A stretch of 64,000 nucleotides of DNA from Acidobacteriota bacterium. GTDB lineage: Bacteria; Acidobacteriota; UBA6911; RPQK01; JAJDTT01. The first letter of the stretch is position 1. Each line of letters opens with the position of its first letter. The translations under genes and the position numbers were made by a program. Where the stretch lies: the NCBI GenBank assembly GCA_965217775.1, contig CBDCJH010000002.1, positions 1,024,001-1,088,000 of the forward strand. Reading direction: 5' to 3'. The notes under the pieces are model-generated. The model worked only from the letters and a program-made list of their open reading frames with translations. It did not search any database and was not told the origin of the DNA. Shown one piece after another: positions 31,775-56,397 of the stretch.

Positions 31775-31785
31775 GCGGACGAGGA

Positions 31786-32205: not shown

Positions 32206-32285
32206 AATCCTTTACGAGAAGATCCTGCTCCAAGTGGATGAGACTCTGACGCCGAAGGCGTTACGGGTTCCGCTGGTTATGGCAT

Positions 32286-39586: not shown

Positions 39587-40669
39587 ATGATGGGAAACAA
39601 GCTCAGAGATCCATCGTACTCCCGCCGCCAGTGGATGGGGCTGGCCACACTGGGCGGCATAACGGCAGTGTCCGCGGGACCACGACCGGCGACTTCGGAA
39701 ACACCGGCCGGTCCGCACCGTCTCGCTTTGAGGGCCGGAGAGTTGGAGGCCCTGGTGGTGGACAACCACGACGGGCTGGCCGGTGAGGAACAGAAACGCA
39801 GCCGGGCTTCGGTCCCCCATGTGGCCGGAGGATTGGGACGCCTTAGCGTCGCAGTCCCCTTCGAGAGGCGTCACAATGGCTACAACGGAGTCGCGCGCTT
39901 CAGTTACCGGGGATCTCCACACCCCTTTCTCCCCGTTGCTTCGGGTCTGAATTGCGAGTTCTTCTTCGACGGAACCGAGGGCACCTTCGAACCCCGCTGG
40001 AGTGACCTCGATAATTTCCAGGCCCAGCCGTCGAGCTTGAAGCGGGTATCCGAGCAAGAGGCTTGGCTCCGGATCGAACCCGGCGAACGGTGGGGCGTCC
40101 AGGTGGAGTCCACCTTCCGATTGGTGGAACCGTGGTTCCTGGACGTGGAGCACGCCTTCACACCCACCCGGCTGGACAAGATCCGGACCCGGTATTTGGG
40201 CGTGTTCTGGGCCAGCTACATCCAGGCTCCCCGAAATCCGGGCTACTACGTTTGGGGCCGGAGGTCGAACTTCGAATCGCCCGCTTGGCACGGTATCTTC
40301 GACGCCCTGGATTTGCACGAATCGGGAGCGATCCGGGCCGAGCGGGGTCCAGTGGGGGAGGGATTGCGGGCTCAGGGAAGGCGTCTGCTCTACAGCTTCG
40401 GCTCGGTGCGCTACGTCGAACCTCTGATGGCCGGCAAGGTCCACGGCATGTTGCTGGCCTACCTGTTCCGCCCTTCAGACGAGTTGGAAATCCGCCCCGC
40501 CTTCAACGCCGGCGGGGGAGGAGTCGGCGGCCCCGCTTGGGACTACCAGGCGGTGGTCCCGGACCCGGAGGAAGGACGCCGCTACAGCTTTCGGCTGAGA
40601 GTCGTCTACAAGCCGTTCGAAGCTCTGGACGAGGCCCTGGAACTCCATCGGGAGTGGGTCACGGGATAG
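39587..40669 (+). CDS. Hypothetical Tat-exported protein
   Basis: SRRQWMGLATLGG twin-Arg signal; beta-rich, aromatic sequence; same strand as neighbours. Confidence 0.65.
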   Translation: MMGNKLRDPSYSRRQWMGLATLGGITAVSAGPRPATSETPAGPHRLALRAGELEALVVDNHDGLAGEEQKRSRASVPHVAGGLGRLSVAVPFERRHNGYNGVARFSYRGSPHPFLPVASGLNCEFFFDGTEGTFEPRWSDLDNFQAQPSSLKRVSEQEAWLRIEPGERWGVQVESTFRLVEPWFLDVEHAFTPTRLDKIRTRYLGVFWASYIQAPRNPGYYVWGRRSNFESPAWHGIFDALDLHESGAIRAERGPVGEGLRAQGRRLLYSFGSVRYVEPLMAGKVHGMLLAYLFRPSDELEIRPAFNAGGGGVGGPAWDYQAVVPDPEEGRRYSFRLRVVYKPFEALDEALELHREWVTG

Positions 40670-40912
40670 TCTCTAAATGTAGTTGATCGAAAGGTAGGCA
40701 GGTGGAGCTCCACAAAACTCGGGACAACACCGCCTGCGACTTGGCTCGAAATGTACGAAGCTTGGTTGCAGGAATTTTCCGCCAATGCAACCGTCGTCTC
40801 CGAGACTCGACTCTCAGCGAAGCTGGTTTTTGTTACAACGAGATTCGGTCTCGGGCAAGCGCTGAAGGCTGAAATCCTGCGCGATCATCGCGCCCCCGGT
40901 GAGAAATTCGGG

Positions 40913-41227
40913 CTAAGCGGCCACGCCAGGTTGGGGCGTCACCTCCTTGTCGAGTCGATCCTTGAGGACAGCCTTCGCTGTTTCAAGCTCGTAGCGAGAC
41001 TGCAAATTCATCCAGAATCGAGCGGAGTTTCCAAAGTACCTGCTTAACCGGAGCGCCGTGTCTGCCGTGATGGCGCGCTTCTCGTGAAAGATCTCATTGA
41101 TCCGGCGGGGCGGCACCGAGATGTCCTTGGCCAGCCGGTATTGGGTCAGGCCCATCGGCTTCATGAACTCCTCCCGCAGAATTTCTCCGGGATGGATGGG
41201 TTGCAGGGTCTGGTCTCTCTGATCCAT
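40913..41227 (-). CDS. higA: HigA antitoxin
   Basis: PIHPGEILREEFM..LTQYRLAK..RRINEI..ITADTALRL..FWMNLQ. Confidence 0.93.
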   Translation of the reverse strand: MDQRDQTLQPIHPGEILREEFMKPMGLTQYRLAKDISVPPRRINEIFHEKRAITADTALRLSRYFGNSARFWMNLQSRYELETAKAVLKDRLDKEVTPQPGVAA

Positions 41228-41252
41228 TGATCAGTCTCCTTCTACCCTCCTG

Positions 41253-41534
41253 CTAGTGGTAGTCCACCACCTCCACGTCAAACGCGTCGCCGGTCTCCCA
41301 GTGAAAGCAGATCCGCCATTGTCGATTGATCCGGACGCTATATTGGCCTTTGCGGTTGCCCGAGAGCGCCTCCAGCCGGCTGGAGGGTATCATCTTGAGG
41401 TCCCTGAGCGATTCGGCTGCGTCCAGCATTTCCAGCTTCCTGAGTGCAGCTTTCTTCAAAACCGGCGGAAACTTCCGTTGAAGCCGCCTGTTGAAGAGCT
41501 TTTCAGTGTCCTTGCAGTGGAAGCTCTTGATCAG
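41253..41534 (-). CDS. higB: HigB (RelE-like) toxin, CTG at the expected start position
   Basis: (L)IKSFHCKDTEKLF..ALRKLEMLDAA..RLEALSGNRKGQYSVRINRQWRICF..VEVVDYH. Confidence 0.9.
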   Translation of the reverse strand: MIKSFHCKDTEKLFNRRLQRKFPPVLKKAALRKLEMLDAAESLRDLKMIPSSRLEALSGNRKGQYSVRINRQWRICFHWETGDAFDVEVVDYH

Positions 41535-41540
41535 GGAAGG

Positions 41541-41569
41541 ATAATGACTCGGCGCGTTAAGGTTGTCAA
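41541..41569 (-). promoter_or_regulatory. sigma70-type promoter of higBA
   Basis: On the minus strand: TTGACA, a 17-nt spacer, then CATTAT ending 6 nt before the CTG. Confidence 0.7.
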
Positions 41570-41823
41570 GCGTTATGGTTCTCCCGCGCCGTCGAGGCGT
41601 GCCACCCTCCCCTGACCCAAATTGGCCCAGGTTTTTCCAACTCTTCAAGCGGTATCCGGCGTCCCGAAAGGTCTGCCCAATCCCAGCCTCCGAGAGTCAA
41701 TTCGGGGAGGACTGAGGCTGGAACCCTCTCCGTAGCCCGTTCCCGCATTCGGCCAGACGGGACTCTCTTGCATCACTAAATACTATCGAAGGTTCAACCT
41801 TCCGCCCGGAGGAACAGATCGCG

Positions 41824-43236
41824 ATGTCAGTCCACTTGCCAAGAAACCCGCACCTTCTGATGAACTACTGGCTCAGTCTGGCGAGGCTGAAACTTCCAAG
41901 AAAACGTTTTCGTCTCCTGTTCAGCTATTTTCAGCGGGAACCGACTTATTCGCTGGCGCTTGCCTCCCTGTCCGCGTACGCGAAGAATTTATTTCCGGAT
42001 GTTGAGGTGTCCCTGGTTTCCGTCCTCCAAAATGACGATGTCCAGGAATATGTGCGGCGTGTGGCGAAGCACAAGCCCGATCTCATCGCGGTCTCGGCCA
42101 TGCATCCGACCTGGTCGCCCATGCTTCCCTATTTGGAGGCTCTCAAGGGAGCGCGGCCGGCGACACCCGTCGTCGTCGGAGGATATCAGGCAATTTTCAG
42201 TCCTCAGGAGACCATCGGCCATCCGGCCGTCAACTACATCTGTGCGGGAGATGGCGAAATACCTCTGGCACAACTGATTCGACGTTTGAAAGATGGTGAG
42301 ACCCAGGAGGCCATTCCAGGGTTGTGGGAAAAGCGAGGCAGTGGAGAAATCGTCAAGAGCTCCCCAAGTCTGACCCCGAACTTGGACGAGATCCCCTTTC
42401 CCGACTACACGATCTTCGAGAAAGACGGGGAAATCTCCTGGCTCAGTTCTCATGCCATCGAGTCCGAGCGGCTGATCACGATGCCGGTCATGTCGGGCCG
42501 GGGGTGTCCCTACCGCTGCAGCTATTGTTGCAATACTCCATTGCTGGAAATGTATCGAGGACAGGGTAACTATTTACGAAAGTACAACCAGGAAAAGCTG
42601 ATCGAGGAATTAATTCGTTTGCGCGACCGTTACGGCATCCAATACTTCCAGTTTATGGATGAGACCTTTCTTTTCGACAAGCGATCCGCCCGGCGCCTTC
42701 TTGGGCTTTATCGGGAGCAGATCGGTCTTCCTTTCTCCATGTTCACCCGGGTGGAGCAGATGGACGAAGATTTTTGCCGCTACGCGGCAGCTGCCGGTTG
42801 TCACTCGATGTGGTTCGGTGTTGAAAGTGGGTCGGAGGCCTATCGCCGCCGCTACCTGGCTCGGAGAATGTCGAACCGGAAGATTCTGGATGCCGCCGAG
42901 ATGGCAAGAAGGCAGGGTATCAGGCGGATGGTCTTTTGCATGGTGGGGATGCCGTTCGAAAGCCGTGAGAATATTCTCGAAACCCTTGAGTTGACGAAAC
43001 TCATTGGGCCGGAACGAGCCATTTTCAGCCAGTATCTCCCTTTACCTGGAACGCCCTTGTACAAGGTCGCCGAACAAGCCGATCTTCTGCTGGACTCGAC
43101 CCGGAAGCAACAGATGTGGAGCATAGGCACGCTCAATATCAAGGAACAAGCCGGATCGGTCTCGGCACCGGAGTTCAAGGAGTTGGTGGACGAAATCTTG
43201 ACCTACGTCTGGGAAGGCAATCGGATTGACGATTGA
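41824..43236 (+). CDS. Cobalamin-binding radical SAM enzyme (class B methyltransferase-like)
   Basis: N-terminal B12-binding-like region (PDLIAVS, VVVGGY, GDGE), SGRGCPYRCSYC, FMDETF, GVESGS, PLPGTPLY. Confidence 0.9.
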   Translation: MSVHLPRNPHLLMNYWLSLARLKLPRKRFRLLFSYFQREPTYSLALASLSAYAKNLFPDVEVSLVSVLQNDDVQEYVRRVAKHKPDLIAVSAMHPTWSPMLPYLEALKGARPATPVVVGGYQAIFSPQETIGHPAVNYICAGDGEIPLAQLIRRLKDGETQEAIPGLWEKRGSGEIVKSSPSLTPNLDEIPFPDYTIFEKDGEISWLSSHAIESERLITMPVMSGRGCPYRCSYCCNTPLLEMYRGQGNYLRKYNQEKLIEELIRLRDRYGIQYFQFMDETFLFDKRSARRLLGLYREQIGLPFSMFTRVEQMDEDFCRYAAAAGCHSMWFGVESGSEAYRRRYLARRMSNRKILDAAEMARRQGIRRMVFCMVGMPFESRENILETLELTKLIGPERAIFSQYLPLPGTPLYKVAEQADLLLDSTRKQQMWSIGTLNIKEQAGSVSAPEFKELVDEILTYVWEGNRIDD

Positions 43237-43379
43237 CGATTGAGATGTCGGAAGCGGGTGTTGGATTCCGGCTTCAATGGAAATCCCGAGCCTTGCTTGA
43301 CTGCTGATTCCTGATCGACGGCAGGTTTGTAGAAGATCCGTAGTCCGGTCACCATGACCGCATGTCCGGCACCGGTTGA

Positions 43380-44603
43380 ATGCGCTTCGATATCGATAAA
43401 CCACGGGACCGGCTGATCAGCGGGCGCATTCAGGCGTTGAGTGGATGGATTGAGGCCGACGGTCCTGATTTCACTCTGGTCGCCGTGTGTGGACGCCGCG
43501 AAATCCGGCTCCGAGAGTGTGCTCATCCGGTACGCCATCTGATTCCCGGAGCCCGCGGCTTCTGGGGGTACCTCGTCCTGCAAGAGTTCCTGGGGTCCAT
43601 ACGACGAGAATTCCTTCATGTCGACCTGATCTGGAAGGGCTCGCGTCTCACGACTCTGCATTTCCGGGTCTTCCCCGTGGCCAAAGAGCTGGCGCGTCGT
43701 TATCCCCTCGATTTGAAGAACTATCCAGTGGGAAGTCGGCATCCGGTGTTCGAGCCTTCGAAACCTGCCCGCGCTCTCGTCTTCCCAGGTCTTGCCCAGG
43801 TCGGAGGGTCGTCACTGAACCAACTGATGCGTTGGAAGATGTATCAGGAGGACTGGTGCTTTCCGGTATACGAGGATGGCAACGATGCGGAAACCTGGAC
43901 CCAATTCCGTGCACTCGAAATCCCCTCGGTCCGCTGGATCGACGGCCACGATTGCTATGGTGCCGCCGACAGTTTGAGCCAGCCGTTTGCTCGAATCACT
44001 CTATTACGCGAACCAATACAACGCTATGTGTCTCTTTTCAACTACGCATCGCTCGTGCATCCACAAGAGTTTGGCTACGCCACCTTCGAAGAGTCCATAT
44101 ACTCAGGTAAAGCCAGACAATATTCTCAATCCTACAGATTGCTGCAATGCGCCGGACGCGACGTATCACCGTCGATTCCTGACGATGAACTCTACACCAG
44201 GGCCAAACAGGAACTTGAGGCTTCCTATGCCTTTGTCGGCATTACCGAGTTATATGAAGAGAGCATCTTCCTGATATGCGAACTTGCCGGTATCGAGTCC
44301 ATCGGCATGTGGTGGAGGATTCTGTCTTCTCCCAAAAGCATCCGGCTTTGGAGCCTTTCCCTTCGGGCCCGGAACCGGCTGCGACGGCTCTTGGCCGTTG
44401 ATCTTCGCCTCTATAGAGAAAAGAGGCAGGATCTGCTCAATCTTCTACGTCGATCAGATTTTGGCACCGCCCTGAAGTCGTATCGAAAGGCTGCGCTCGA
44501 ACAGCCGGAACTGCCCGATGTCTTCAAGGCCGTCGAGTGTCTGCGATGGAGGCAGACGATTGCGGAAGAGCGGCTTGCACGCTTCGAACGGGATAAACGA
44601 TGA
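43380..44603 (+). CDS. Sulfotransferase-fold protein with atypical 5'-donor loop; candidate phosphoramidate transferase
   Basis: 3'-phosphate-binding motif ITLLREPIQRYVSLFNY, GH motif, FVGITELYEESI, DLRLY. The loop reads PGLAQVGGSSL where HIPKTGGTS is usual. Confidence 0.7.
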   Translation: MRFDIDKPRDRLISGRIQALSGWIEADGPDFTLVAVCGRREIRLRECAHPVRHLIPGARGFWGYLVLQEFLGSIRREFLHVDLIWKGSRLTTLHFRVFPVAKELARRYPLDLKNYPVGSRHPVFEPSKPARALVFPGLAQVGGSSLNQLMRWKMYQEDWCFPVYEDGNDAETWTQFRALEIPSVRWIDGHDCYGAADSLSQPFARITLLREPIQRYVSLFNYASLVHPQEFGYATFEESIYSGKARQYSQSYRLLQCAGRDVSPSIPDDELYTRAKQELEASYAFVGITELYEESIFLICELAGIESIGMWWRILSSPKSIRLWSLSLRARNRLRRLLAVDLRLYREKRQDLLNLLRRSDFGTALKSYRKAALEQPELPDVFKAVECLRWRQTIAEERLARFERDKR

Positions 44604-47044
44604 CTGAGACACTCATGGGTCATACCGGTGCTCCGGCGGACCAATCCATTCATCGATCGGCGGCTGGAGGCTTCCTGACCAAGGCGGAGGCGTTGGAGTT
44701 TGTGCACGGAAATCTGAAATATGCGCAGATTCCGCCGTTTCTATATTTTTCCGTTGGCGAGTGGCGATGGCGCAACGAAAACGTTTTGCGCAAGGTCGCA
44801 GCCTTTCTGTCCGAACGTCCGCTCGCCGTACGAAGTTCCGCCCGGTGCGAGAACCTGAGCGGTGCCTCTCTGGCGGGGCATTTCCGGTCCTGTTTGAACG
44901 TGGAAAACGATCGGAGGCCGGTCCGGGAAGCTGTCGAGCGGGTGATCGCTTCCATGGGCGGCCACCGGGACGATCAGGTTCTGATTCAAGAGATGGTGGT
45001 CGGCGTTTCTCTCAGCGGGGTCATTTCCACGCGAGACTCGGATACCGGTGCTCCCTACTACCGAATCGAATATGACGAGTCGTCCGCGACGGATCTCGTG
45101 ACCAGAGGGGCGGAGGGACACCAGACCATTCTCTTCCATCGGCAGTCACCGCGAGAACTGATCGGACCGGATTGGGTCTGCCGGGTTCTGGATGCCTCCT
45201 CGGAGCTGGAGCGGTGCTGGGGCCGGACTCCACTGCATATCGAGTTTGCACGGACTCATGACGGGAAAATCCAGATTCTTCAGGTGCGGCCGATATCGAG
45301 CCGGGAGCAACGGGGACGGGGGCATGAGGCGCGAACGATTGCAGCCCTGCGGAAGCTTGAGATCTCCTTGGTCGAACATTCTCGTCGCCGGCACGGCGTC
45401 GCCGGATCAACCACGATTCTCGGGCAGATGCCGGACTGGAACCCGGGAGAACTGATCGGAAGTACGCCTCGACCGCTCGCCGTGTCACTGTTTCGCAAAC
45501 TGATCACGGATAGGGTGTGGCAGGAAGCTCGTTCCACCATGGGTTACCGTCCCGTCCCGGACACGCCGCTGATGGTCGTGCTCGCCGGGAGACCTTACGT
45601 GGATGTCCGGGCGAGCTTCAATTCGTTTCTCCCCGCGGGACTGCGCCGTCTCGACGAAGGTGCGGTTGTAAATGCTTGGCTTGGCCGATTACGTCAATAT
45701 CCGGAATACCACGATAAAATTGAGTTTCAGGTCGCCCAGACAGTATTGGACTTTTCGTTCGGGCAAGACTATCGGCGGCGATATGCAGGCACGCTGTCTC
45801 GCAAGTCGTTCTTGGACTATGCCGAGCGAGTGCGTTGCCTGACGAATCGCAACGTTTCCCTTGGCCCTTCCGCGTCGTTGGCTGAGGCGCTCCGCAAGTT
45901 ACGGAAGTTGGAACAGGCTCAGAGTTGCCGAGAATCTGCGATTCGGCCGTCTCTCTCCTTTGCGTTTCGATTGTTGCGGGAGTGTCGTCTGCTCGGCACG
46001 CTCCCGTTCGCCATTGTCGCGCGCCACGCCTTTATCGCGGAATCGATACTCCGGTCCGCAATGCGGAGGTCCGCGTTGAGCCGGGAACGATTGGATCAGT
46101 TCCGGCGTTCGTGGAGTACCGTGGGTCGGAATGTGGGGCGTGACTTGGCCAGAGTCATGCACGGCGAGGTCGACGCGGTTTCGTTCCTTGGAAAATACGG
46201 ACATCTGAGACCGGGCTCTTTCGACATCCTCTCTCCCCGCTACGACCAACGGCCGGACCTGTTTGCGGGCAATTCCGTCCACCCATCGACATTCGAGTCC
46301 GAAGGGGACTGTTTTGTTTGGACTCCAAAAGAAATCGTCCACATCGAACGCCTTATCAGGGAAGCAAGGCTGACCTTCAGCGCTGAAGAACTGTTCCGCT
46401 ACTCAGCGACGGCCGTCACGGCTCGAGAACATGCGAAATTCGTTTTCAGCCGGCATCTATCGGACGCTTTGGAATCCATCGCCGGTTGGGGAAAGGGGGT
46501 CGGCCTCAGTCGCGAACAGCTCTCGTACTTGACGGTTGAGGATCTGAAATCCGCACTCCGCTCTCCCCTTGGCGATGGCGGAGTCGCGTTGGCGGCCGTG
46601 GCAGAGTCCGGACGGTCGGCAACACGAAGCCGGCGAGGTCTCCGCCTGGGCTGCCTGATCCGCAACCGCAGAGATATCTACCTTCCGCTACAGCATGCAT
46701 GGCCCAACTTCATCAGCTCTCGCCGCGCCGAGGGTAGACCGGTGTTTCTGCATAACCGGGAGTCGGTTGCGTTGGATCTGAGCGGGAAAATAGTCTGCAT
46801 CGAGAGCGCGGACCCAGGCTTCGATTGGATATTCTCTATGGGGATCGCAGGCTTGATCACCAAGTTCGGCGGCTCCAATTCCCATATGGCGATCCGCTGC
46901 GCAGAGATGGGAATACCGGCTGCCGTCGGAATCGGTGAAACCCGCTTTGAACTCCTTCGAAAGTCGAAATCCGTCGAATTGAGCTGTGGTGACAGAGCGA
47001 TTCGGGCCATTCCTGGCCCACAGCCCGAACCCATGACCTGGTAA
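44600..47044 (+). CDS. L-glutamine kinase-like PEP-utilising family enzyme (Cj1418-like)
   Basis: TKAEAL, VRSSA..E..SLAGHF ATP-grasp region, MPDWNPGELIG, YGHLRPG, ADPGFDWIF..GGSNSHMAIR phospho-His domain. Confidence 0.88.
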   Translation: MTETLMGHTGAPADQSIHRSAAGGFLTKAEALEFVHGNLKYAQIPPFLYFSVGEWRWRNENVLRKVAAFLSERPLAVRSSARCENLSGASLAGHFRSCLNVENDRRPVREAVERVIASMGGHRDDQVLIQEMVVGVSLSGVISTRDSDTGAPYYRIEYDESSATDLVTRGAEGHQTILFHRQSPRELIGPDWVCRVLDASSELERCWGRTPLHIEFARTHDGKIQILQVRPISSREQRGRGHEARTIAALRKLEISLVEHSRRRHGVAGSTTILGQMPDWNPGELIGSTPRPLAVSLFRKLITDRVWQEARSTMGYRPVPDTPLMVVLAGRPYVDVRASFNSFLPAGLRRLDEGAVVNAWLGRLRQYPEYHDKIEFQVAQTVLDFSFGQDYRRRYAGTLSRKSFLDYAERVRCLTNRNVSLGPSASLAEALRKLRKLEQAQSCRESAIRPSLSFAFRLLRECRLLGTLPFAIVARHAFIAESILRSAMRRSALSRERLDQFRRSWSTVGRNVGRDLARVMHGEVDAVSFLGKYGHLRPGSFDILSPRYDQRPDLFAGNSVHPSTFESEGDCFVWTPKEIVHIERLIREARLTFSAEELFRYSATAVTAREHAKFVFSRHLSDALESIAGWGKGVGLSREQLSYLTVEDLKSALRSPLGDGGVALAAVAESGRSATRSRRGLRLGCLIRNRRDIYLPLQHAWPNFISSRRAEGRPVFLHNRESVALDLSGKIVCIESADPGFDWIFSMGIAGLITKFGGSNSHMAIRCAEMGIPAAVGIGETRFELLRKSKSVELSCGDRAIRAIPGPQPEPMTW

Positions 47045-47103
47045 TCCGAAAACTCGAGGAGAGAATGAGAATCTGACGGCTCGAATTCTGGTGAGGAAAA
47101 CAT

Positions 47104-47748
47104 TTGAGCGGCACATGGCGACTGGGTTTGACGATGCGAGTGCAAGGATGTGACGACTCGCATGAACTTCGGGACGTGTTGGCCCATGACTGGCCGGTGC
47201 TCATCCGCGCCAGTCTGGGCGACGTGCCCTGGCTGGCGATACCGAATCTCGAGGAATCGGTAAAGGACTACCTGCAACGATGGCGGATCGGCGCCGTGAT
47301 TCTCACGGGCGGTGAAGACATCGGGACTTCCCCTTTGCGCGATGAGACCGAACGCCATGTTCTGGACTACTGCACCGAGAGGAGAATGCCGGTATTGGGA
47401 GTGTGCCGCGGGCATCAAATGATTCAGGTGTACTGCGGAGGCAGTCTGCAGAACGTGCCAACGGCGCGGCATGTCGGGACCAATCACTCGGTATTCGTTT
47501 GTCATGACAGGAGTCGTGCCGTATGGGGAAGCGGTCCGTTGAAGGTGAACTCCTACCATCGCCAGGGTGTGTCCCTGGAACGTCTCGGCCGGGGCCTGCA
47601 TCCGTGGTTGGTCTCCTCCGATGGTCTGGTCGAAGGGTTTTTCCATTCCGAAATGAATCTATTGGGCGTTCAATGGCATCCGGAACGGCGTCTTCCGGAC
47701 CCCGGTATGGCCAATAGACTCATGCGTTTCCGTTTCACTCGAAAATAG
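47104..47748 (+). CDS. Class I glutamine amidotransferase-type hydrolase (Cj1417-like)
   Basis: LTGGED, LGVCRGHQ (Cys), VNSYH, GVQWHPE (His-Glu). Confidence 0.88.
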   Translation: MSGTWRLGLTMRVQGCDDSHELRDVLAHDWPVLIRASLGDVPWLAIPNLEESVKDYLQRWRIGAVILTGGEDIGTSPLRDETERHVLDYCTERRMPVLGVCRGHQMIQVYCGGSLQNVPTARHVGTNHSVFVCHDRSRAVWGSGPLKVNSYHRQGVSLERLGRGLHPWLVSSDGLVEGFFHSEMNLLGVQWHPERRLPDPGMANRLMRFRFTRK

Positions 47749-47793
47749 GGCTGATCGCTGAGTGGGATCGACGGGTTCTCCAGGCCGAAAAGA

Positions 47794-48606
47794 ATGCCTC
47801 CAATGGACAAAGACGTTCGGAGTATGAAGCCAGGCCGGAATCGTGCGGGAAGTGTGAGGGCTCTGGTCTTGGCAGCGGGACGCGGCACTCGATTGAATCA
47901 TCTGACCCGCGATCGACCGAAGTCCCTGGTCACACTGGAGGGCAAGACCCTGTTGGAATGGCAGATCGCGTCCTTGAGGGCGGCGGGTGTCTCCGATATT
48001 ACGGTAGTTCGTGGATATCGGGGGGAGATGATCGATCTTCCCGGACTTGCGTACCTGGAGAACGCCGATTGGGCACGAACCAACATGGTCCATTCGTTGA
48101 GATGTGCCGATGAGTGGTTGAAGGCGTCGGTCTGCATCGTCTCCTACGGAGATATTGTCTACCACCCAAGCTTGGTTTCCGCCCTGGTCGATACGCCCGG
48201 AGAGATCGTCGTCGCCTATGACGTTCTATGGGAAAGGCTTTGGCAAGAGCGCTTCGAGGATCCGGCAGTCGACGTGGAGAGCTTTCGAATCGAGGATGGA
48301 TGGATCGTGGAGATCGGGGAAAGCGTCAGTTCATTGGAATCGGTCGAAGGCCAATACCTGGGACTGTTCAAGTTGGCGCCCGAGGGTTGGCGCAAGATAC
48401 GTGGGTTTTTGAGCCTGACGGAGGACGCGACGGCTCGAAGTCTTGACGTGACCGCCTTGCTCAGCCGTCTGATTGGGGAAGGGATCAAAGTCAAGGGAAT
48501 CCCGATCCGAGGCCGCTGGTGCGAGCTCGACCACGTCACGGACCTACGGATATATGAGCGAATGATCCAATCAGACACGCAGTGGAGCCACGATTGGCGG
48601 CTCTGA
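47794..48606 (+). CDS. Nucleotidyltransferase, LicC-like (Cj1416-like)
   Basis: LVLAAGRGTRL..RPKSL, TNMVHSL, SYGDI, GQYLGL, WCELD. Confidence 0.88.
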   Translation: MPPMDKDVRSMKPGRNRAGSVRALVLAAGRGTRLNHLTRDRPKSLVTLEGKTLLEWQIASLRAAGVSDITVVRGYRGEMIDLPGLAYLENADWARTNMVHSLRCADEWLKASVCIVSYGDIVYHPSLVSALVDTPGEIVVAYDVLWERLWQERFEDPAVDVESFRIEDGWIVEIGESVSSLESVEGQYLGLFKLAPEGWRKIRGFLSLTEDATARSLDVTALLSRLIGEGIKVKGIPIRGRWCELDHVTDLRIYERMIQSDTQWSHDWRL

Positions 48607-48667
48607 AGCACCGTGGGGCCGTGGGGCGGGACTGACGTCGAGGGGGCTACGCCATGGGGTTCCCCAA

Positions 48668-49230
48668 TGAATGAGATCTGGCCGGACTGGCCTGAGATCG
48701 GGTCCGAGGGCAAGAGGGGATGGGTGTTCTGGGTGACCGGTTTGTCAGGTAGTGGAAAGACCACGATCGGACAGCTTCTTTTCCGGCGCCTGCGGGAGCG
48801 GGCCGTCAATTCAGCATTTTTGGATGGAGACGTTCTACGCCAGGTTTTCGGCAATGATTTGGGGTACACACTGGAAGAAAGAAGGAAGTGCGCACGGCGC
48901 TACTCACGGATCAGTGCGATGCTTGCCGGCCAGGGTCTGAACGTGGTGATCGCGACGATTTCGATGTTCCACGAATGTAGCGAATGGAATCGGGCGAACC
49001 TTCCCCGATACTTTGAAATCTACCTGCGGGTTCCGCGGGATATCCTGGCTATCCGACGGTCTCCGGATCTGGGCGCCAATCCGGAACGGAGTCAGATGGA
49101 ATCCGTTGTCGGTTGGGATCTGCCCTTCGATGAGCCTCTCAATCCCGATCTGATCATCGACAACGACGGCTCGATGGCTCCGCAGGAAGTTGCGGACTCC
49201 ATTTGGAGTAGGGTCGTAGCGTCGTTATGA
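48668..49230 (+). CDS. APS kinase-like protein (Cj1415-like cytidine diphosphoramidate kinase)
   Basis: WVTGLSGSGKTT, LDGD, ATISMF, YFEIYL, EPLNPDL; start uncertain (48613 or 48668). Confidence 0.85.
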
Positions 49231-49239
49231 CGTCCATCC

Positions 49240-50043
49240 ATGATGGATACCTGGGATTACACTGCTTTAGCTGCTTCCTACAACAAGCGGGCACCCTATT
49301 CGAAACAGGTCATTGACGAATTTCTGCGGAACTCAGGTGTCAGGAGCGGTGCGAAAGCCTGCGACATCGGGGCCGGAACCGGTAACTTGACGTTGTTCCT
49401 GCTCAAATGGGGACTTCGAGTCGTAGCTGTAGAGCCGAACCCGGCCATGCGCGCGATCGGGATGCCTCGGACGAAGTCTTTTCCCGATATTCGTTGGATA
49501 AATGCCCGTGGCGAGGCAACCGGACTACCGGCGTCGGAATTCGACGTCGTCACCTTCGGCTCGTCGTTCAATGTCCTCGATCGGAACCGAGCTCTCGTGG
49601 AGACCGCTCGCATCCTCAAGCCGAAGGGTTGGTTCGCCTGCGTCTGGAATTACAGAAACCTCGACGACCCGTTGCAGAGGAGGATCGAGGAGGTGATCCA
49701 CGGATTCGTGTCCCGCTACGATTACGGCGTGAGGCGCGAAGATCAGACCGAAGTTATCCAGGCGAGCGGTCTTTTTGACCGGATCGTCAGGATTGACCGG
49801 GGGTTCAAACACCGGACAAAAGCATCGGATTGCATGGATGCCTGGCGAAGTCACGCCACCCTCGCTCGTCAAGCCGGTCCGAAAACGCTCGGTCGGATCC
49901 TCGAGAAGATCGAATGCTTGCTGACGGAACCGGGTGGAAGGGACGTCGAGGTGCCCTACACGACCTCCCTCTGGATGGCAAAAAAGTCCGACGCCTGGAA
50001 TGAATCACCGGGTCCGGCTGCTCAGCGGAACCGTAGCGAGTAG
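49240..50043 (+). CDS. Class I SAM methyltransferase (Cj1419-like)
   Basis: DYTALAASYNKRAPYS, DIGAGTG, AVEPN, FGSSFN, WN, AWRSH..QAG. Confidence 0.85.
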   Translation: MMDTWDYTALAASYNKRAPYSKQVIDEFLRNSGVRSGAKACDIGAGTGNLTLFLLKWGLRVVAVEPNPAMRAIGMPRTKSFPDIRWINARGEATGLPASEFDVVTFGSSFNVLDRNRALVETARILKPKGWFACVWNYRNLDDPLQRRIEEVIHGFVSRYDYGVRREDQTEVIQASGLFDRIVRIDRGFKHRTKASDCMDAWRSHATLARQAGPKTLGRILEKIECLLTEPGGRDVEVPYTTSLWMAKKSDAWNESPGPAAQRNRSE

Positions 50044-51503
50044 AGGTCCGCGTCCTTCATCACGAAACGCAGGCGCACCGGCTTCCCCGAGAATCGCGCC
50101 AGGGGTTTGGACGAGGTGGCCTTGGGATGGTTTCGTTTCCACCGGACCGTGTGCTCGATCTCGTCGCCCCAGATCAACGGGGACTCCTCCAGGGCGAATC
50201 CGGCCAGGGGCCGTCCGCCGGCGTCCTGGATCTCCAACCGGATGCTTCCCGCCGCCGAGGTCGCGAAGTTCAACACCAGGTTCTCACCCGTGAAGGTCAG
50301 AGGCCGGGTGATCAGTTCGCCTCCTTCCGGGCCGGCATGCACCGACATGAATCCGTCGGTCCGGATCACCATCCGCTCCAGGTAGTTGGTGGGAAACGTG
50401 TAGTGGCGTTGGACGAACAGCGAGATCTCGTCTGGCGCGGTCGCCAGTAGGCCCCAGGCGGGCGTGTTGGAGCGATGGGACCAGTTCCGTATCTCGGTCC
50501 CAGGACGAATGAAGGCATCCAGTTGGCGATTCCAGTGGATGGCGTCGCGGCTGGACATGAAGATGGCGTCGGAGCAACCGCCGCCTTGAGCCTGATTGAA
50601 GGGGCCCCGCGTCTTCCAGGGGTGGAAACGCCGGGGAAAGGCCAGATAGATGTGAGGCGCCCTGAAGTAAGGGCGGGTCGCGTTGGTGTAGAGGTGCTCG
50701 GCGGGTGCATCCCCGAACTCTCCCCATTGGCCCGGCGTCCAATTCCTGAAGTCGGTGGAGGTGGCGATCTTGATGGTGCGAACTCCGAGCTTGAAATCCC
50801 GGTAGACGGAGACGTAGCGCTGGTGGGCCGTGTCCCAGAAGGCCAGATTGGGAGAGTCGAAGGCCCCGTCGGTGATGATGGGCTCCTCCCTCATCTCCTT
50901 CCAGTGGATTCCGTCGGGTGAAACGAATGCGTAGAGAGCCCGTCGGTGCGGACCCACGGCCTTGTAGAGTTCGGAAACGGGCGCCTCAGGGTTCGAATCC
51001 TTGAAGGGAAGAAAGGCCGGCGTGCCTTTTCCCATCCAGACGATGTTGTTGTCCCTGGTTCCTTCGTACTCGTATAGCCCCAGCGAGGGCCGGGTCCAGT
51101 GGATCCCGTCCCGGCTCTCGGCGTAGCACGCGGTATGGGGGTGCTCGGGGATCACCTCCTCACCCGGCTCCAGGAGCGACTCCAGGGCGTATCCGGCATG
51201 ACTGCTGCCCCGGTAGTACATTCGGTAGAGATCACCGTCCTGGAAAACGACAGCCGTGCTTCCACTGGTCACTCCCTCCCAGGGCCGGTCGAAGACCAGC
51301 ACCTTTCCGGCGCGCCGAGGGGTGTGGAGCTTGAGTTCCAGACCCTTCAGGGAGTCGATGAGGTAGTTGTCGACAAAAATCTCCAGACGGGAGTCCAACT
51401 CCCGCACCTCTGCGAGAGCCTTCCGGTCGTGCCGGCCGCCTTCGAGGGCGGAAGGAGAGATCATGATCAGGACGAGTAACGGGTTAAGGAATCGGAATCT
51501 CAA
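50022..51503 (-). CDS. Secreted beta-propeller glycoside hydrolase-like protein
   Basis: DRPWEG, YAESRDGIHWTRP, SPDGIHW, RTDGFMS, NFATSAAGSIR, LRFVMKDADLYS; resembles the N-terminal half of 25258..28566. Confidence 0.75.
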   Translation of the reverse strand: MRFRFLNPLLVLIMISPSALEGGRHDRKALAEVRELDSRLEIFVDNYLIDSLKGLELKLHTPRRAGKVLVFDRPWEGVTSGSTAVVFQDGDLYRMYYRGSSHAGYALESLLEPGEEVIPEHPHTACYAESRDGIHWTRPSLGLYEYEGTRDNNIVWMGKGTPAFLPFKDSNPEAPVSELYKAVGPHRRALYAFVSPDGIHWKEMREEPIITDGAFDSPNLAFWDTAHQRYVSVYRDFKLGVRTIKIATSTDFRNWTPGQWGEFGDAPAEHLYTNATRPYFRAPHIYLAFPRRFHPWKTRGPFNQAQGGGCSDAIFMSSRDAIHWNRQLDAFIRPGTEIRNWSHRSNTPAWGLLATAPDEISLFVQRHYTFPTNYLERMVIRTDGFMSVHAGPEGGELITRPLTFTGENLVLNFATSAAGSIRLEIQDAGGRPLAGFALEESPLIWGDEIEHTVRWKRNHPKATSSKPLARFSGKPVRLRFVMKDADLYSLRFR

Positions 51504-53739: not shown

Positions 53740-56397
53740 TCAGTCGACGAAGAGGAACTCATTGAGATTGAAGACGGCCAGACAGAGTTCCGTCAGTCCC
53801 TGGGCCTGACTCCGCTCGATGGTCTTCAGTTCGGGGGGAGTACCCTCCGGCAACTCCTCCCACTTCTCGCCCCCGGCGGATGCCAAGGTCTCAAGTGCGT
53901 CCCGGGTCTCCCGATCGGTGGGCGGCCGCCCCAGGGCGGTCCGCCAGGCCCGGTCCACCCATTGGCTCGGCTCGGAACCCCCTTCCCGGACCAGGCGCCC
54001 GGCGAAGGCCAGGGCCTGCCGGAATACGGCATCGTTGTTGAGGAGCCACAGGGACTGGGGCGCCACCGTGGTCACGGAGCGCTCGGGACAACTGACCGCC
54101 GGATCGGGAGTATCGAACTTCTCGAACATGGGGAAGACGAAGTTCCGCCGCGAGAGGATATAGATGCCTCTGCGGCTGTGCTCTGCCGGGTCCGCCGGCA
54201 CGGTCCACGCCCACTTGAGCCGGAAGCCGGCCAGTTCATCGTCCGACAGCGGCGGAACGAAAGGCCGGCCGTACATCTTTGAGTTCAGGGTGCCGGCCAC
54301 GGCATGGATGCTGTCCCACAAGACCTCGGCCTCGACCCGTCTCCGATTGGCCCGCCAGAGGTAGGCGTTGTCCGGGTCGGCGGCGGCGTTGTGAGGATCG
54401 TCGAAGCGGCTGGTGAGCCGGTAGGTCGAGGATTGGACGATCAGCCGGTGCATCGCCTTGAGGCTCCAGCCTTGGCGGACAAACTCGGTGGCCAGCCAGT
54501 CCAGCAGCTTCGGATGGGACGGGGATTGCCCCTGGAGGCCGAAATCGTTGGACGTGGACACGATCCCCCGCCCGAAATGCCATTGCCAGAGGCGATTCAC
54601 CATGACCCGCGCGGTCAGCGGATGGTCGGGACGGGTGAGCCACAGGGCCAGTTGCTTCCGGTACCGGGGGCCATGGCCTTCGTTGGTGTGGAAATCGACT
54701 CCGTCTGCCAGAATCCGGGGCAGTCCGGCCTCCACGAGCTTCCCGGGGCGGTCCAGATCGCCCCGCTCCAGGATCCGGGTCTCCGGGATCAACTCCCCCT
54801 GAATGTGACCCAGGACGGTGGCCGAAGGCGGGTCGTAGAATCCGTCCCATCGGACGGCGTGGGAGGCGTCCTTGACGGGGATCTCCAGCACCTTCTCGGC
54901 GATGGCCAGCAGCAGGCGGGTGCTTTCTTCCTTCTCCTCTTGCGTCAGGTGCTCCTTGAGCTTGAAGGTCGTTGGGCTGAAGAAGTCCGCCAAGGCCTCC
55001 TGAAGGGGCGCCGCCAGCCTCTTCTCCTCCTCCGAGCGTTCCCCCTCCCGCTTCTCGTAGGCTCGGCGCACCTCTGCCGGGAAACGGGCTTTCCGTTCCT
55101 CGGTCAAACGCTGCCGGACCTTGGCCTCGAACATCCCGTGGGCCCGGCGCCGTTCGTCCAAGGCGATGGTCCGGGGGTAGTACTCGTTCCGGTGGAACAT
55201 GCTCATGGCCGTGATCACCGGAAGCGTCACCGGATGGGAGGGGGCGAAGATGGCCTGCACCCGGAAATAGTCTTCCTGGCTGATGGGATCGAACTTGTGG
55301 TCGTGGCAGCGGGCGCAGGCCAGGGTCAGACCCATGAAGGCCGCTCCCGTCATGTCGATCCAATCGGTCAGACGTTCGTAGCGGAGCTTGGGGGCGTCCA
55401 GGGTGGACTCGCCGATGGAGGGTCCAAACCCGTATAGGCTGGTGCCCACGCGGGCTTCCAGGTGAGCCACCTTTGCGGGCCGAATGGCGTAGCTGGTGTC
55501 GTAGAGGTCCAGGTTGTCGGGCCACAGCTCGTCGGCCGCGACCTGTTCCTGGATGAAGCGGTCATACGGTTTGTCTTCGTTGAACGACTTGATCACGTAG
55601 TCCCGGTAGCGCCAGGCGTTGGGATAATACTCGTCCGTCTCGAACCCGCCGCTATCGGCGTAGCGCACCACGTCGAGCCAATGCCGGGCCCAGCGCTCGC
55701 CATAGGCGGGCGACTCCAGCAACTGGTCCACGAGCTTCTCGAACGCCTTGGGGGACTCGTCCCGGAGGAAGGACTCCACTTGATCCGGCGAGGGCGGCAG
55801 TCCGATCAGGTCGATGTAGACTCTGCGGACCAACTCCGGCCGGCTCGCTTCGGGAGCCGGTTTCAGCCCCTGGGCATGGAGCCGGGCCAGCACGAAGTTG
55901 TCGATGGGATTGCGAATCCGTCGGGTCGCTTCGAGGACTTGGGGAGACTCGGGACGAACCGGTGCGCGAAAGGACCACCAAGTGGGGCCGCCGGCTTCCG
56001 TAGCGGCAGAGTCGGGCCAGGATGCCCCGGCCTCGATCCAGGCCTTGAGGGTTTCCAGGTCCTGCTCGGGAAGCCGTTTCTCTCCCGGGGGCATCTCCAG
56101 ATCGCCTATGTGGGCGACGGCCTGGTAGAGCAGGCTGAAGTCGGGCCGGCCCGGCTCCACTGCCGGACCACGGTTGCCGCCACGCAACATACCCTCCCGG
56201 GACCTGAGATCCAGGCCCGAGGCGCGGATGGAGCCGTGGCAGCTCAGGCACTCGTGCTTGAGGATCTCCGAGGCCCGATCGGCGCGGCTCGACCCGGAAG
56301 GCGCCGGCCAGCCCGTCGCCCCGCTGAGGACGGCGACGGCGAGGACCACCCGAAGACAGCGTGCCTGCATGGCGGGGGTGGGCTGCGAAATGTTCAC
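53740..56397 (-). CDS. PSD1/planctomycete cytochrome c protein (second paralog)
   Basis: CLSCH, CARCHDHKFDP, WLDVVRYADS, PSHPKLLDWLA. Confidence 0.9.
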   Translation of the reverse strand: MNISQPTPAMQARCLRVVLAVAVLSGATGWPAPSGSSRADRASEILKHECLSCHGSIRASGLDLRSREGMLRGGNRGPAVEPGRPDFSLLYQAVAHIGDLEMPPGEKRLPEQDLETLKAWIEAGASWPDSAATEAGGPTWWSFRAPVRPESPQVLEATRRIRNPIDNFVLARLHAQGLKPAPEASRPELVRRVYIDLIGLPPSPDQVESFLRDESPKAFEKLVDQLLESPAYGERWARHWLDVVRYADSGGFETDEYYPNAWRYRDYVIKSFNEDKPYDRFIQEQVAADELWPDNLDLYDTSYAIRPAKVAHLEARVGTSLYGFGPSIGESTLDAPKLRYERLTDWIDMTGAAFMGLTLACARCHDHKFDPISQEDYFRVQAIFAPSHPVTLPVITAMSMFHRNEYYPRTIALDERRRAHGMFEAKVRQRLTEERKARFPAEVRRAYEKREGERSEEEKRLAAPLQEALADFFSPTTFKLKEHLTQEEKEESTRLLLAIAEKVLEIPVKDASHAVRWDGFYDPPSATVLGHIQGELIPETRILERGDLDRPGKLVEAGLPRILADGVDFHTNEGHGPRYRKQLALWLTRPDHPLTARVMVNRLWQWHFGRGIVSTSNDFGLQGQSPSHPKLLDWLATEFVRQGWSLKAMHRLIVQSSTYRLTSRFDDPHNAAADPDNAYLWRANRRRVEAEVLWDSIHAVAGTLNSKMYGRPFVPPLSDDELAGFRLKWAWTVPADPAEHSRRGIYILSRRNFVFPMFEKFDTPDPAVSCPERSVTTVAPQSLWLLNNDAVFRQALAFAGRLVREGGSEPSQWVDRAWRTALGRPPTDRETRDALETLASAGGEKWEELPEGTPPELKTIERSQAQGLTELCLAVFNLNEFLFVD

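Follow-up and report, generated by a model that had tools for sequence, protein, structure and literature searches.

[quoted passage not shown] PAPS-dependent sulfotransferases have a 5' loop with the consensus PKxGxT, which was used here for loop comparison. The O-polysaccharide of E. coli O9a, which is ABC-transporter-dependent, receives a methyl phosphate cap from WbdD that is read by the C-terminal domain of Wzt. Some cobalamin-dependent radical SAM enzymes, those of the GenK type among them, act in the tailoring of sugars or alkoxy groups. One passage on the C. jejuni pathway describes the conversion of glutamine, ATP and CTP to CDP-phosphoramidate 3'-phosphate (PMC11800397). In a passage of a 2019 review MeOPN is described as known only from Campylobacter (PMC6429109), and an excerpt of another paper reports a membrane segment in the Campylobacter MeOPN transferases (PMC5808241).

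Gene content of the locus

In the window, which is the whole 64,000-nucleotide stretch of soil acidobacterium DNA that was analysed (contig positions 1024001-1088000), positions 41824-50043 hold seven co-oriented + strand ORFs with intergenic gaps of -4 to 143 nt. The ORF list and Pfam agree with the initial annotation, which had described closely spaced genes of these families, and the order kinase, hydrolase, cytidylyltransferase, 3'-kinase that it had likened to Cj1418-1417-1416-1415 is the same here. A non-coding leader (41580..41823, +) lies 5' of the first gene at the left end of the island, as placed by the junction in empty-site contigs; a sigma-70-like site was not found on its + strand and Rfam gave zero matches in 40000-51000 at E<=1. 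Transmembrane segments are absent from all seven proteins, unlike the Campylobacter transferases as reported in the excerpt above (PMC5808241), and this difference counts against the pathway that we propose.

The 44600..47044 (+) gene encodes an 814 aa protein of the L-glutamine kinase type (Cj1418-like), with PPDK_N and PEP-utilizers domains in Pfam, in which an ATP-grasp/PPDK_N part is followed by a phosphohistidine swivel domain with the motif GGSNSH at residues 757-762. It matches NF004508 with 802.6 bits (cut-off 501; model positions 7-787 of 789) and, based on this match, it is a member of the glutamine-kinase-type family. PEP synthase (models give <=61 bits) and rifamycin (rifampicin) phosphotransferase (45 bits), the groupings that the initial annotation had named as the danger to its reading, were both ruled out. 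Its forecast of mislabelling also held: the sources name homologues of this kinase 'pyruvate, phosphate dikinase' or 'PEP/pyruvate-binding domain-containing protein', and 'glutamine kinase' is the JGI name for 9 of the 120 homologues listed.

The following gene (47104..47748, +) encodes a 214 aa class I glutamine amidotransferase-fold protein (Cj1417-like; Peptidase_C26/GATase in Pfam) with a nucleophile elbow, GVCRG, and an HPE motif, and is probably a gamma-glutamyl-CDP-amidate hydrolase. Its top NCBIfam match is NF045546 (E 1.7e-28, positions 4-182 of 198), where the score of 100 bits falls below the cut-off of 250 and the runner-up family reaches 47.8 bits. Of seven genome cassettes that are complete in other respects, three lack the hydrolase gene, and a search of these three genomes gave no NF045546-like gene at E<=1e-10; either the step is dispensable there or the transferred group is a different one. 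Both this absence and the low score count against our proposal. The 270 aa nucleotidyltransferase encoded at 47794..48606 (+; Cj1416-like; NTP_transf_3, 64.5 bits) has as its closest solved structure LicC, a CTP:phosphocholine cytidylyltransferase (1jyk, E 5.5e-12). It is probably a CTP:phosphoglutamine cytidylyltransferase, an assignment made without a family-specific model.

The 48613..49230 (+) product is a 205 aa APS-kinase-fold 3'-kinase (Cj1415-like; Pfam APS_kinase) with a P-loop, GLSGSGKT, at residue 43. It passes NF004041 (158.3 bits, cut-off 127) and fails the apsK model TIGR00455 (105.6 bits vs 138.7), by which a housekeeping CysC was rejected. NF004041 is above its cut-off in five of 41 relatives, precisely those of the glutamine-kinase genomes and always adjoining that gene, and in none of the 36 others. 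The gene probably encodes a cytidine diphosphoramidate kinase, and its translation probably starts later than the ORF does, since the alignment to relatives begins only at about residue 33.

The candidate phosphoramidate transferase (43380..44603, +; 407 aa) was identified from its predicted fold and motifs. It scores below the cut-offs of Sulfotransfer_2 (16.9 bits; cut-off 22) and Gal-3-O_sulfotr (14.6 bits), the latter being matched by 35 of 40 relatives. The AlphaFold2 model (mean pLDDT 92.3) shows an N-terminal Ig-like sandwich (about residues 1-110) and a carbohydrate-sulfotransferase fold (about 128-367). The weak Sulfotransfer_2 assignment is borne out because the predicted structure matches heparan sulfate 2-O-sulfotransferase (HS2ST, 4ndz; VIA-align Z 14.6, rmsd 3.6 A, 232 residues), and HS6ST (5t05) follows with Z 14.3. 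In the profile alignment to HS2ST, 'RWIDGH' lies opposite 'FYHGH', which holds the His base, and 'LLREPxxRxxS' lies opposite the 3'-phosphate motif 'VIRDPIERLVS'; by this alignment both the 3'-phosphate motif and the catalytic His are conserved in the protein. The 5'-phosphosulfate loop, FPGLAQVGGSS, has no Lys, which fits a changed donor but may also point to a changed reaction and so counts against our proposal. DUF2972, the domain of the Campylobacter transferases, is absent from the protein and was matched by none of the 40 relatives at E<=1, and a search for a DUF2972 transferase in five glutamine-kinase genomes gave no match, as did the control of that search. The family is small, with 73 proteins, 68 of them at >=39% identity.

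The first gene (41824..43236, +) encodes a 470 aa cobalamin-binding (class B) radical SAM enzyme of an uncharacterised subfamily (Pfam Radical_SAM PF04055, 82.1 bits; B12-binding PF02310, 54.5 bits) with the cluster motif C228-x3-C232-x2-C235. It reached the cut-off of no NCBIfam subfamily model (the top one, ApyD, gave 90.5 bits against 750), and its closest solved structures are AprD4 (6fd2, E 8.4e-18) and then TokK, OxsB and CysS. The last gene (49240..50043, +) encodes a 267 aa class I SAM-dependent methyltransferase (Methyltransf_11, 56.4 bits) that met no specific NCBIfam model.

Recurrence, mobility and selection

The neighbourhood search suggested by the initial annotation recovered the gene set at 12 genome loci and 19 metagenome loci, one of the latter being on a contig that also supplied a genome locus, and because of this recurrence the arrangement is not due to chance. 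The hosts are MAGs of Acidobacteriota, "Deltaproteobacteria", Binatia, Polyangiaceae and Verrucomicrobiae, all uncultured lineages from soil and groundwater, with different neighbours throughout; the cassette is kept across several phyla. At the 12 genome loci (>=40% identity) the radical SAM gene adjoins the sulfotransferase-fold gene in 11, and a glutamine kinase gene, complete or truncated where the contig stops, follows the latter at all ten loci that extend past it, two contigs ending at this gene. The methyltransferase is present at all eight genome loci whose contig extends that far, in two pieces in L023, and in L066 and L069, where the donor genes are not adjacent, it remains together with the genes for the radical SAM enzyme and the sulfotransferase-fold protein.

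Within the genus the cassette is a clean 8.4-kb presence/absence island, and contigs of two sequencing runs (X19 and X18) join position 41579 straight to 50022. No gene beyond the cassette is common to the 13 loci compared, and among the 65 flanking ORFs of 11 loci each Pfam family is found in two at most. This agrees with the description of the cassette as self-contained, and the lack of a linked acceptor-building gene in the same loci and flanks counts against our proposal. In line with the initial annotation, which had noted the lack of a glycosyltransferase, the window has no GT1 or GT2 glycosyltransferase; the 22 GT2 and 11 GT1 matches of the genome all lie elsewhere. Compared with a congener, all seven genes have dN/dS of 0.16-0.40, which shows that the cassette is under purifying selection.

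The proposed pathway and its alternatives

The cassette very probably makes a phosphorus-nitrogen donor of the Campylobacter capsule type. The glutamine kinase would form N-phospho-glutamine, the cytidylyltransferase would turn it into CDP-glutamine, the hydrolase would free glutamate to leave cytidine diphosphoramidate and the APS-kinase-fold enzyme would put on a 3'-phosphate. The product, 3'-phospho-cytidine 5'-diphosphoramidate, would be a PAPS look-alike. With moderate confidence, we propose that the cassette is a self-contained operon which moves horizontally and encodes seven soluble enzymes for making this donor, transferring its phosphoramidate to a sugar, O-methylation and B12-dependent tailoring. 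The sulfotransferase-fold protein would move the phosphoramidate onto a hydroxyl, most likely of a nucleotide sugar or glycan built by genes elsewhere in the genome. The methyltransferase would then probably O-methylate the transferred group to methyl phosphoramidate, and the radical SAM enzyme probably tailors the same sugar, with C-methylation as its most likely reaction.

A sugar is the likeliest acceptor because the nearest non-cassette relatives of the radical SAM enzyme occupy glycan loci, some of them beside Wzt. The neighbours of six orthologues (44-55% identity) that lack the sulfotransferase-fold gene differ from those of the cassette; of these orthologues, two (L071 and L072) directly adjoin Wzm/Wzt with a Wzt_C domain, and others adjoin lipid A acyltransferase-like genes, a carbamoyltransferase or a PIG-L deacetylase. 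The neighbours of 53 distant relatives (26-35% identity) are of glycan type, with GT1/GT4 in 18 loci, sugar epimerase/dehydratases in 13, and DegT aminotransferases and CMP-sugar-type cytidylyltransferases in eight each. A different acidobacterial glutamine-kinase locus (L044) sits within a Wzt/GT locus. The adjacency of radical SAM and Wzt_C genes is a lead only toward O-polysaccharide capping, and Wzt_C transporters, found in all ten genomes checked, cassette-bearing or not, do not discriminate. A sugar is also favoured because the closest folds of the transferase all work on sugar hydroxyls.

One other option, possible though unlikely, is that the cassette does not decorate a surface glycan and instead serves as a minimal biosynthetic gene cluster whose product is a soluble small molecule, such as a nucleoside or other metabolite with an O-alkyl phosphoramidate. 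Its self-contained, mobile and patchy nature (present in 5 of the 401 genomes sampled from the phylum), the absence of glycan neighbours at 11 loci, the solubility of every enzyme and the frequency of B12 radical SAM enzymes in secondary metabolism, with TokK, OxsB, CysS and AprD4 among the solved relatives, would all fit. Yet no exporter, resistance or scaffold-building gene is conserved alongside, and carbohydrates are the common theme both of the folds nearest to the transferase and of the genomic settings nearest to the radical SAM clade.

We consider it improbable that the acceptor is a lipid or protein bound by the Ig-like domain. This Ig/E-set sandwich is generic, with a top match of Z 8.8 to a mannanase accessory domain and no match to a specific carbohydrate module, and tyrosylprotein and steroid sulfotransferases have the common fold (Z about 7). 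However, PAP-binding carbohydrate sulfotransferases are far ahead (Z 14.0-14.6 vs <=8.6 for other sulfotransferase families), and a linked lipid or peptide-precursor gene is absent.

More doubtful still is ordinary sulfation, with PAPS supplied by the APS-kinase-like gene beside an unrelated PEP-utilising enzyme. The Pfam labels APS_kinase and Sulfotransfer_2 and the PAPS-type fold and 3'-phosphate motif would suggest it, but the cassette has no ATP sulfurylase, the transferase loop lacks lysine, the genome already has a canonical fused APS kinase apart from the cassette (C2:4561452), the 3'-kinase fits a subfamily model that occurs only beside glutamine kinases, and the kinase, hydrolase and cytidylyltransferase play no part in sulfation. 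It is least probable that the cassette is a functionless passenger being lost from this genome: it is broken in congener G007, in G004 only a radical SAM relic of 46 residues is left of it, and G001, G003, G005 and G006 lack it at this site (a decay that counts against our proposal), the empty-site form occurs in the same communities and the GC is 0.56-0.59 against 0.63-0.65 in the flanks, but all seven frames are open, the catalytic motifs are complete in every enzyme inspected, selection is purifying and contigs of two metatranscriptome libraries cover the cassette, the last a weak point since such libraries can contain DNA.

Comparison with known systems

Like the MeOPN system, the cassette has the four donor enzyme families in the same order and a class I methyltransferase, but it has no surrounding capsule or other glycan locus, its hosts are soil and groundwater lineages and a B12 radical SAM enzyme is tightly linked to it. 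Its transferase candidate is soluble, with Ig-like and sulfotransferase folds, whereas a membrane segment and DUF2972 are reported for those of Campylobacter in the excerpt cited above (PMC5808241).

The proposed phosphoramidate transfer resembles the PAPS-dependent carbohydrate sulfotransferases (HS 2-O- and 6-O-) in fold and in the aligned 3'-phosphate-binding R-x7-S stretch and His base, and PAPS systems with CysC likewise use a dedicated 3'-kinase to make a 3'-phosphorylated nucleotide donor. It differs in the sub-cut-off Pfam scores, in the longer, lysine-free 5' loop and in the donor, which would be a cytidine phosphoramidate and not an adenosine phosphosulfate. As in WbdD/Wzt capping, soluble enzymes would add a small methylated phosphoryl group to a sugar, and close radical SAM relatives and one glutamine-kinase locus adjoin Wzt; in contrast, the cassette has no linked Wzm/Wzt, and congeners have Wzt_C genes with or without it. 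With AprD4, TokK and CysS the radical SAM protein shares the B12-binding domain, the radical SAM core and CxxxCxxC, although it is distant from them (for AprD4, E 8.4e-18 over the core; for CysS, 1e-4). What sets the locus apart from MeOPN is the pairing of a sulfotransferase-fold transferase candidate and a B12 radical SAM partner in a portable, probable phosphoramidate cassette.

Gene content and predicted donor enzymes

The source genome (G000, Acidobacteriota) consists of two contigs, and the window is G000:C2:1024001-1088000. As the initial annotation proposed, seven plus-strand ORFs lie between 41824 and 50043 with a spacing of -4 to 143 nt (ORF listing); these genes are referred to here as the cassette. 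Pfam gives Radical_SAM and B12-binding domains for the first gene, a sub-threshold Sulfotransfer_2 match (16.9 bits) for the second, PPDK_N with PEP-utilizers for the third, Peptidase_C26 / GATase for the fourth, and NTP_transf_3, APS_kinase and Methyltransf_11 for the fifth to the seventh. The GC content over 40-50 kb is 0.56-0.59, compared with 0.63-0.65 on either flank. Lower-GC stretches are also found elsewhere in the window, at 28001-36000 (0.58-0.60) and 60001-62000 (0.535) against ~0.64, and these are perhaps further acquisitions. The genome's 22 GT2 and 11 GT1 glycosyltransferase matches all lie outside the window. No known RNA, riboswitches included, was found at E<=1 between 40000 and 51000; the promoter and terminator scan gave fewer sites than in shuffled sequences and none that was useful, and anti-phage defence models gave generic radical SAM and methyltransferase matches only.

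The 814-residue kinase matches the NCBIfam model NF004508, which we take to be the family containing Cj1418 of the Campylobacter jejuni O-methyl phosphoramidate (MeOPN) capsule genes, from end to end with 802.6 bits (cut-off 501). On the same protein no PEP synthase model scores above 61.3 bits, the rifamycin phosphotransferase (Rph) model gives 44.7 bits, and because of this difference the kinase stands apart from PEP synthases and rifampicin phosphotransferases, a grouping that had been named beforehand as speaking against the pathway. JGI gives the name 'glutamine kinase' to 9 of the 120 kinase homologues listed, with 44-50% identity, which supports our placement of Cj1418 in NF004508; other homologues carry the NCBI names 'pyruvate, phosphate dikinase' and 'PEP/pyruvate-binding domain-containing protein'. 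The catalytic motif of the kinase swivel domain, GGSNSH, is intact.

The APS-kinase-fold protein passes NF004041, presumably the family containing Cj1415 (158.3 bits against a cut-off of 127), and fails the apsK model (105.6 against 138.7), and its P-loop is intact. A canonical APS kinase is found elsewhere in the source genome, within a 592-residue frame (225 bits). In a set of 41 relatives, which takes in the unpublished genome G016, NF004041 is above its cut-off in five (G000, G002, G007, G030 and G039), always adjoining the glutamine kinase gene, and these are the same five of the 41 that have glutamine kinase. The model is never above cut-off in the remaining 36 genomes; at E<=1e-20, 33 of them match it solely through an APS kinase of housekeeping type, with at most 110 bits, and three have no match at that level.

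For the amidotransferase-fold protein the best family is NF045546 (gamma-glutamyl-CDP-amidate hydrolase), matched over the full length with 100 bits (E 1.7e-28), a score that is below the equivalog cut-off of 250 and twice that of the next family. The Cys, His and Glu motifs of the hydrolase are present (GVCRG, HPE). The nucleotidyltransferase has generic matches only (NTP_transf_3 and sugar-phosphate nucleotidyltransferase), and its nearest solved structure is the cytidylyltransferase LicC. A sequence search of the PDB gave no detectable relatives of Cj1415-1418. With two of its four enzymes covered by curated models and a third by a best-hit relative, the donor half is assigned to the Campylobacter-type pathway, where the correspondence to Cj1415-Cj1418 is one of curated family models and names.

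The sulfotransferase-fold protein and the radical SAM enzyme

The sulfotransferase-fold family is small, with 73 matches, of which 68 have at least 39% identity and nearly all are metagenomic. An AlphaFold2 model built from a 40-sequence alignment has a mean pLDDT of 92.3, and its residues 128-367 superpose on the heparan sulfate 2-O- and 6-O-sulfotransferases (HS2ST and HS6ST) with Z of 14.0-14.6 and an rmsd of 3.6-3.9 A over 225-232 residues. The best superpositions are on the HS2ST structure 4ndz (Z 14.6, rmsd 3.6 A, 232 residues) and the HS6ST structure 5t05 (Z 14.3); every other sulfotransferase family gives Z of 8.6 or less, and the Foldseek E for the fold is 2.8e-5. In a profile search of the PDB (E 2.4e-4) the invariant 'RWIDGH' pairs with 'FYHGH' of HS2ST, and 'LLREPxxRxxS' pairs with its 3'-phosphate-binding stretch 'VIRDPIERLVS'. 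The catalytic His and the 3'-phosphate-binding motif are thus kept, with H190, R210, R215 and S218 invariant or nearly so among the 40 sequences. The 5'-phosphosulfate-binding loop of canonical sulfotransferases holds a catalytic lysine; at that position the window protein reads FPGLAQVGGSS and the family consensus FPGLGAVGG, both without Lys. The window protein is also below the Pfam gathering scores, which are 22 for Sulfotransfer_2 and 27 for Gal-3-O_sulfotr (14.6 bits); the latter model is matched at E<=1 by 35 of the 40 relatives, at best with 2.9e-8. A candidate transferase that uses a PAPS-like phosphoramidate donor would fit the kept 3'-phosphate site, the altered 5' site and the private 3'-kinase encoded next to it.

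Residues 1-110 form a generic Ig/E-set sandwich. A specific carbohydrate-binding module was considered for this domain and rejected, as its best match when folded alone is a mannanase accessory domain at Z 8.8, and so was a Wzt_C-like domain, as the Wzt C-terminal domain is absent among the best 50 structural matches.

The radical SAM enzyme is above the cut-offs of PF04055 (82.1 bits) and PF02310 (54.5 bits), and its cluster motif CxxxCxxC, from residue 228, is intact. All 24 of its NCBIfam matches are far under cut-off (the best has 90.5 bits against 750), and no model placed it with PhpK, HpnR, BchE, AprD4 or another characterised subfamily; its solved relatives, AprD4, TokK, OxsB and CysS, are all distant. 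A metagenome scan with an alignment of 12 cassette copies of this enzyme gave 80 loci; these are not independent, since some are near-identical copies and one contig already appears among the genome loci. Orthologues with at least 44% identity were found in 27 loci, with the sulfotransferase-fold gene alongside in 19, absent in six and cut off by the contig end in two. The six without it have glycan-related neighbours: Wzm and Wzt with a Wzt_C domain in L071 and L072 (both metagenomic), two lipid A acyltransferase-like genes, a carbamoyltransferase and a HAD hydrolase in L062, a PIG-L deacetylase in L074 and a methyltransferase in L077. Distant relatives, of 26-35% identity, account for 53 loci, none of which has cassette genes; their neighbours are GT1/GT4 glycosyltransferases (18 loci), sugar epimerases or dehydratases (13), methyltransferases (12), and SPASM radical SAM proteins, DegT aminotransferases and CMP-sugar-type cytidylyltransferases (8 each). 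Based on the neighbours of these two groups, the radical SAM clade is glycan-associated.

At two of these metagenome loci, L066 and L069, the radical SAM, sulfotransferase-fold and methyltransferase genes are together and the donor genes are not adjacent. The L071 and L072 relatives (48% identity) directly follow Wzm/Wzt, with no phosphoramidate genes there, and the gene that comes next in L071 encodes a methyltransferase-GNAT fusion.

Distribution and the island site

When one genome per species was scanned with the sulfotransferase-fold family alignment, 12 loci reached 40% identity or more; all lie in metagenome-assembled genomes, from Acidobacteriota, Verrucomicrobiae, 'Deltaproteobacteria', Binatia and Polyangiaceae. 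The radical SAM gene adjoins in 11 of the 12, the exception being the verrucomicrobial locus. Four of the genome loci have all seven genes, three have six genes (without the hydrolase) and four are cut by contig ends. In an all-against-all ORF comparison of 13 loci the common items were the cassette genes and their shadow frames only, and no Pfam family occurred in more than two of 65 flanking ORFs from 11 loci. Otherwise complete cassettes that lack the hydrolase are L015, L017 and L018 (genome) and L060 (metagenome), and a search of the whole genomes of the first three at E<=1e-10 gave no NF045546-like gene; either another hydrolase serves in these cassettes or the group transferred there is not plain phosphoramidate. 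A distant cassette, the genome locus L023, has a radical SAM protein of 31% and a sulfotransferase-fold protein of 29% identity, and several of its genes are split into two or three parts, as would be expected of a decaying copy or of frameshift errors in a long-read assembly.

Within the phylum the glutamine kinase is above cut-off in 5 of 401 sampled genomes, three of them outside this genus. These three have the donor genes and a methyltransferase, and they have no relative of the window's sulfotransferase-fold protein or radical SAM enzyme. At one of the three, L044 (G412:C5:104500-124499), the donor genes lie inside a Wzt/glycosyltransferase locus of another acidobacterium, together with a Wzt ABC transporter with Wzt_C, GT1/GT4, an SGNH/AlgX-like gene and a weak Sulfotransfer_3-like protein of 419 residues. 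This context hints that phosphoramidate may cap ABC-exported polysaccharides. The 419-residue protein was rejected as a member of the window family, as there is no profile similarity (probability 0.1%), and the two are at most fold relatives.

The site of the island can be followed among the congeners. In G002 the cassette is intact and syntenic, with ~86-93% protein identity; in G007 it is broken, most of the sulfotransferase-fold gene being lost and the genes for the radical SAM enzyme and the kinase being split, and in G004 it is down to a 46-residue radical SAM relic. The same site is without the cassette in G001, G003, G005 and G006, and in G003 the two flanking genes are ~28 bp apart. 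Contigs from two public runs join 41579 straight to 50022 and skip 8442 nt; these are the empty-site form in the same communities. Direct or inverted repeats flanking the island, of the kind that could point to a mode of integration, were limited to short, low-identity matches.

At the left edge of the island, on the minus strand, are a HigB-like toxin (41253-41648; PF05015, 67.7 bits) and a HigA, HTH_3 antitoxin-like gene (40913-41227). This pair inserted independently at the hotspot: it is missing beside the G002 cassette, and it occurs in G005 and G006, which have no cassette. The L011 cassette is also flanked by a HigB homologue. Just downstream of the island is a minus-strand gene (50022-51503) for a 493-residue protein with a signal-peptide-like N-terminus and no Pfam match even at E<=0.1. 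Its family is hugely expanded: each of five congener genomes has 158 to 205 matches, and many of these are at 45-65% identity, and near it lies a minus-strand gene for a PSCyt1/PSCyt2/PSD1 protein (53740-56397). In two metatranscriptome libraries of a single study, much of the cassette is covered by contigs, at low depth; contigs do not prove transcription, and such libraries may also contain DNA.

Acceptor and comparison with known systems

Based on the assignments above, the most likely route is that the four donor enzymes would produce 3'-phospho-cytidine diphosphoramidate, the sulfotransferase-fold enzyme would move the phosphoramidate onto a sugar hydroxyl, the class I methyltransferase would make the methyl ester of the phosphoramidate, and the radical SAM enzyme would modify the same sugar. 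The main reason for favouring a sugar is the glycan association of the radical SAM clade. As the cassette encodes soluble proteins throughout and brings no acceptor genes along, the acceptor would have to be a molecule already produced by many diderm soil bacteria; a nucleotide sugar and a glycan on the cytoplasmic side of the membrane are the candidates. An attractive, albeit unproven, option is that the group caps the end of an ABC-transporter-dependent polysaccharide, by analogy with the methyl phosphate cap that the O9a polysaccharide of E. coli bears. Wzt_C was considered as a marker of cassette hosts and dropped; it is in all 10 genomes checked, cassette or not, and is therefore uninformative, so that the capping idea is not one that co-occurrence can address.

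Another hypothesis is that the seven genes suffice, as a portable unit, to make a free organophosphoramidate and not a glycan decoration. The sulfotransferase-fold enzyme would then put the P-N group on a common cytoplasmic metabolite, for example a nucleoside or sugar phosphate; formation of the O-methyl ester would fall to the methyltransferase, and the subsequent extension or branching of a carbon, in the way that CysS acts on methoxy groups, to the B12 radical SAM enzyme. If true, the product would be a natural O-alkyl phosphoramidate, structurally related to the synthetic phosphoramidate pesticides; we regard this hypothesis as improbable. A lipid or a protein is an unlikely alternative acceptor. 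True sulfation is a further, improbable alternative: the fold and the 3'-phosphate motif are common to the window protein and the PAPS-type carbohydrate sulfotransferases, and the lysine of the 5' loop is not. The last alternative, also improbable, is a decaying passenger, for which copies such as that of G007 may be cited; between the window and G002 dN/dS is 0.16-0.40 across the seven genes (NG86), a crude figure as it comes from a single pair.

According to a 2025 paper, the four Campylobacter enzymes convert glutamine, ATP and CTP to CDP-phosphoramidate 3'-phosphate, Cj1419 and Cj1420 are without functional assignment, and Cj1421 and Cj1422 are known from knockouts only (PMC11800397). The last steps of MeOPN synthesis, transfer from donor to acceptor and methylation, are uncharacterised even in Campylobacter, and the Campylobacter locus as described in the sources consulted has no counterpart of the radical SAM enzyme. 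According to a 2019 review the MeOPN modification is known from Campylobacter only (PMC6429109), and a Borg preprint notes MeOPN-like genes in an archaeal element. In the open literature searched we found no paper joining 'glutamine kinase' and 'sulfotransferase'; 'glutamine kinase' and 'radical SAM' occur together in a general review. Annotation pipelines label the cassette genes as PEP-utilising enzyme, adenylyl-sulfate kinase or hypothetical protein, and the pathway is therefore invisible in current genome surveys. Judging from the distribution of the cassette, P-N chemistry would travel as a compact unit among uncultured phyla of soil and groundwater, here in combination with radical SAM chemistry that is absent from the known pathway.

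The transfer half differs. The MeOPN transferases of Campylobacter are described as having a conserved N-terminus, a membrane segment and then a DUF2972 domain; in Cj1421 and Cj1422 the conserved N-terminal domain comprises residues 1-244 and the membrane segment lies between the N- and C-terminal domains (PMC5808241). Unlike these, the window sulfotransferase-fold protein has neither DUF2972 nor a membrane segment: DUF2972 (PF11186) was matched by none of the 40 family members at E<=1, and no 19-residue window reaches 1.6 on the Kyte-Doolittle scale. Five glutamine-kinase genomes gave no DUF2972 match, and the control genomes likewise gave none. The transfer half is not of the Cj1421/Cj1422 family, and the cassette supplies a small, soluble and tractable candidate transferase. 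A transferase with a sulfotransferase fold would also explain why the donor carries a 3'-phosphate, as the donor would imitate PAPS and the enzyme would imitate a sulfotransferase.
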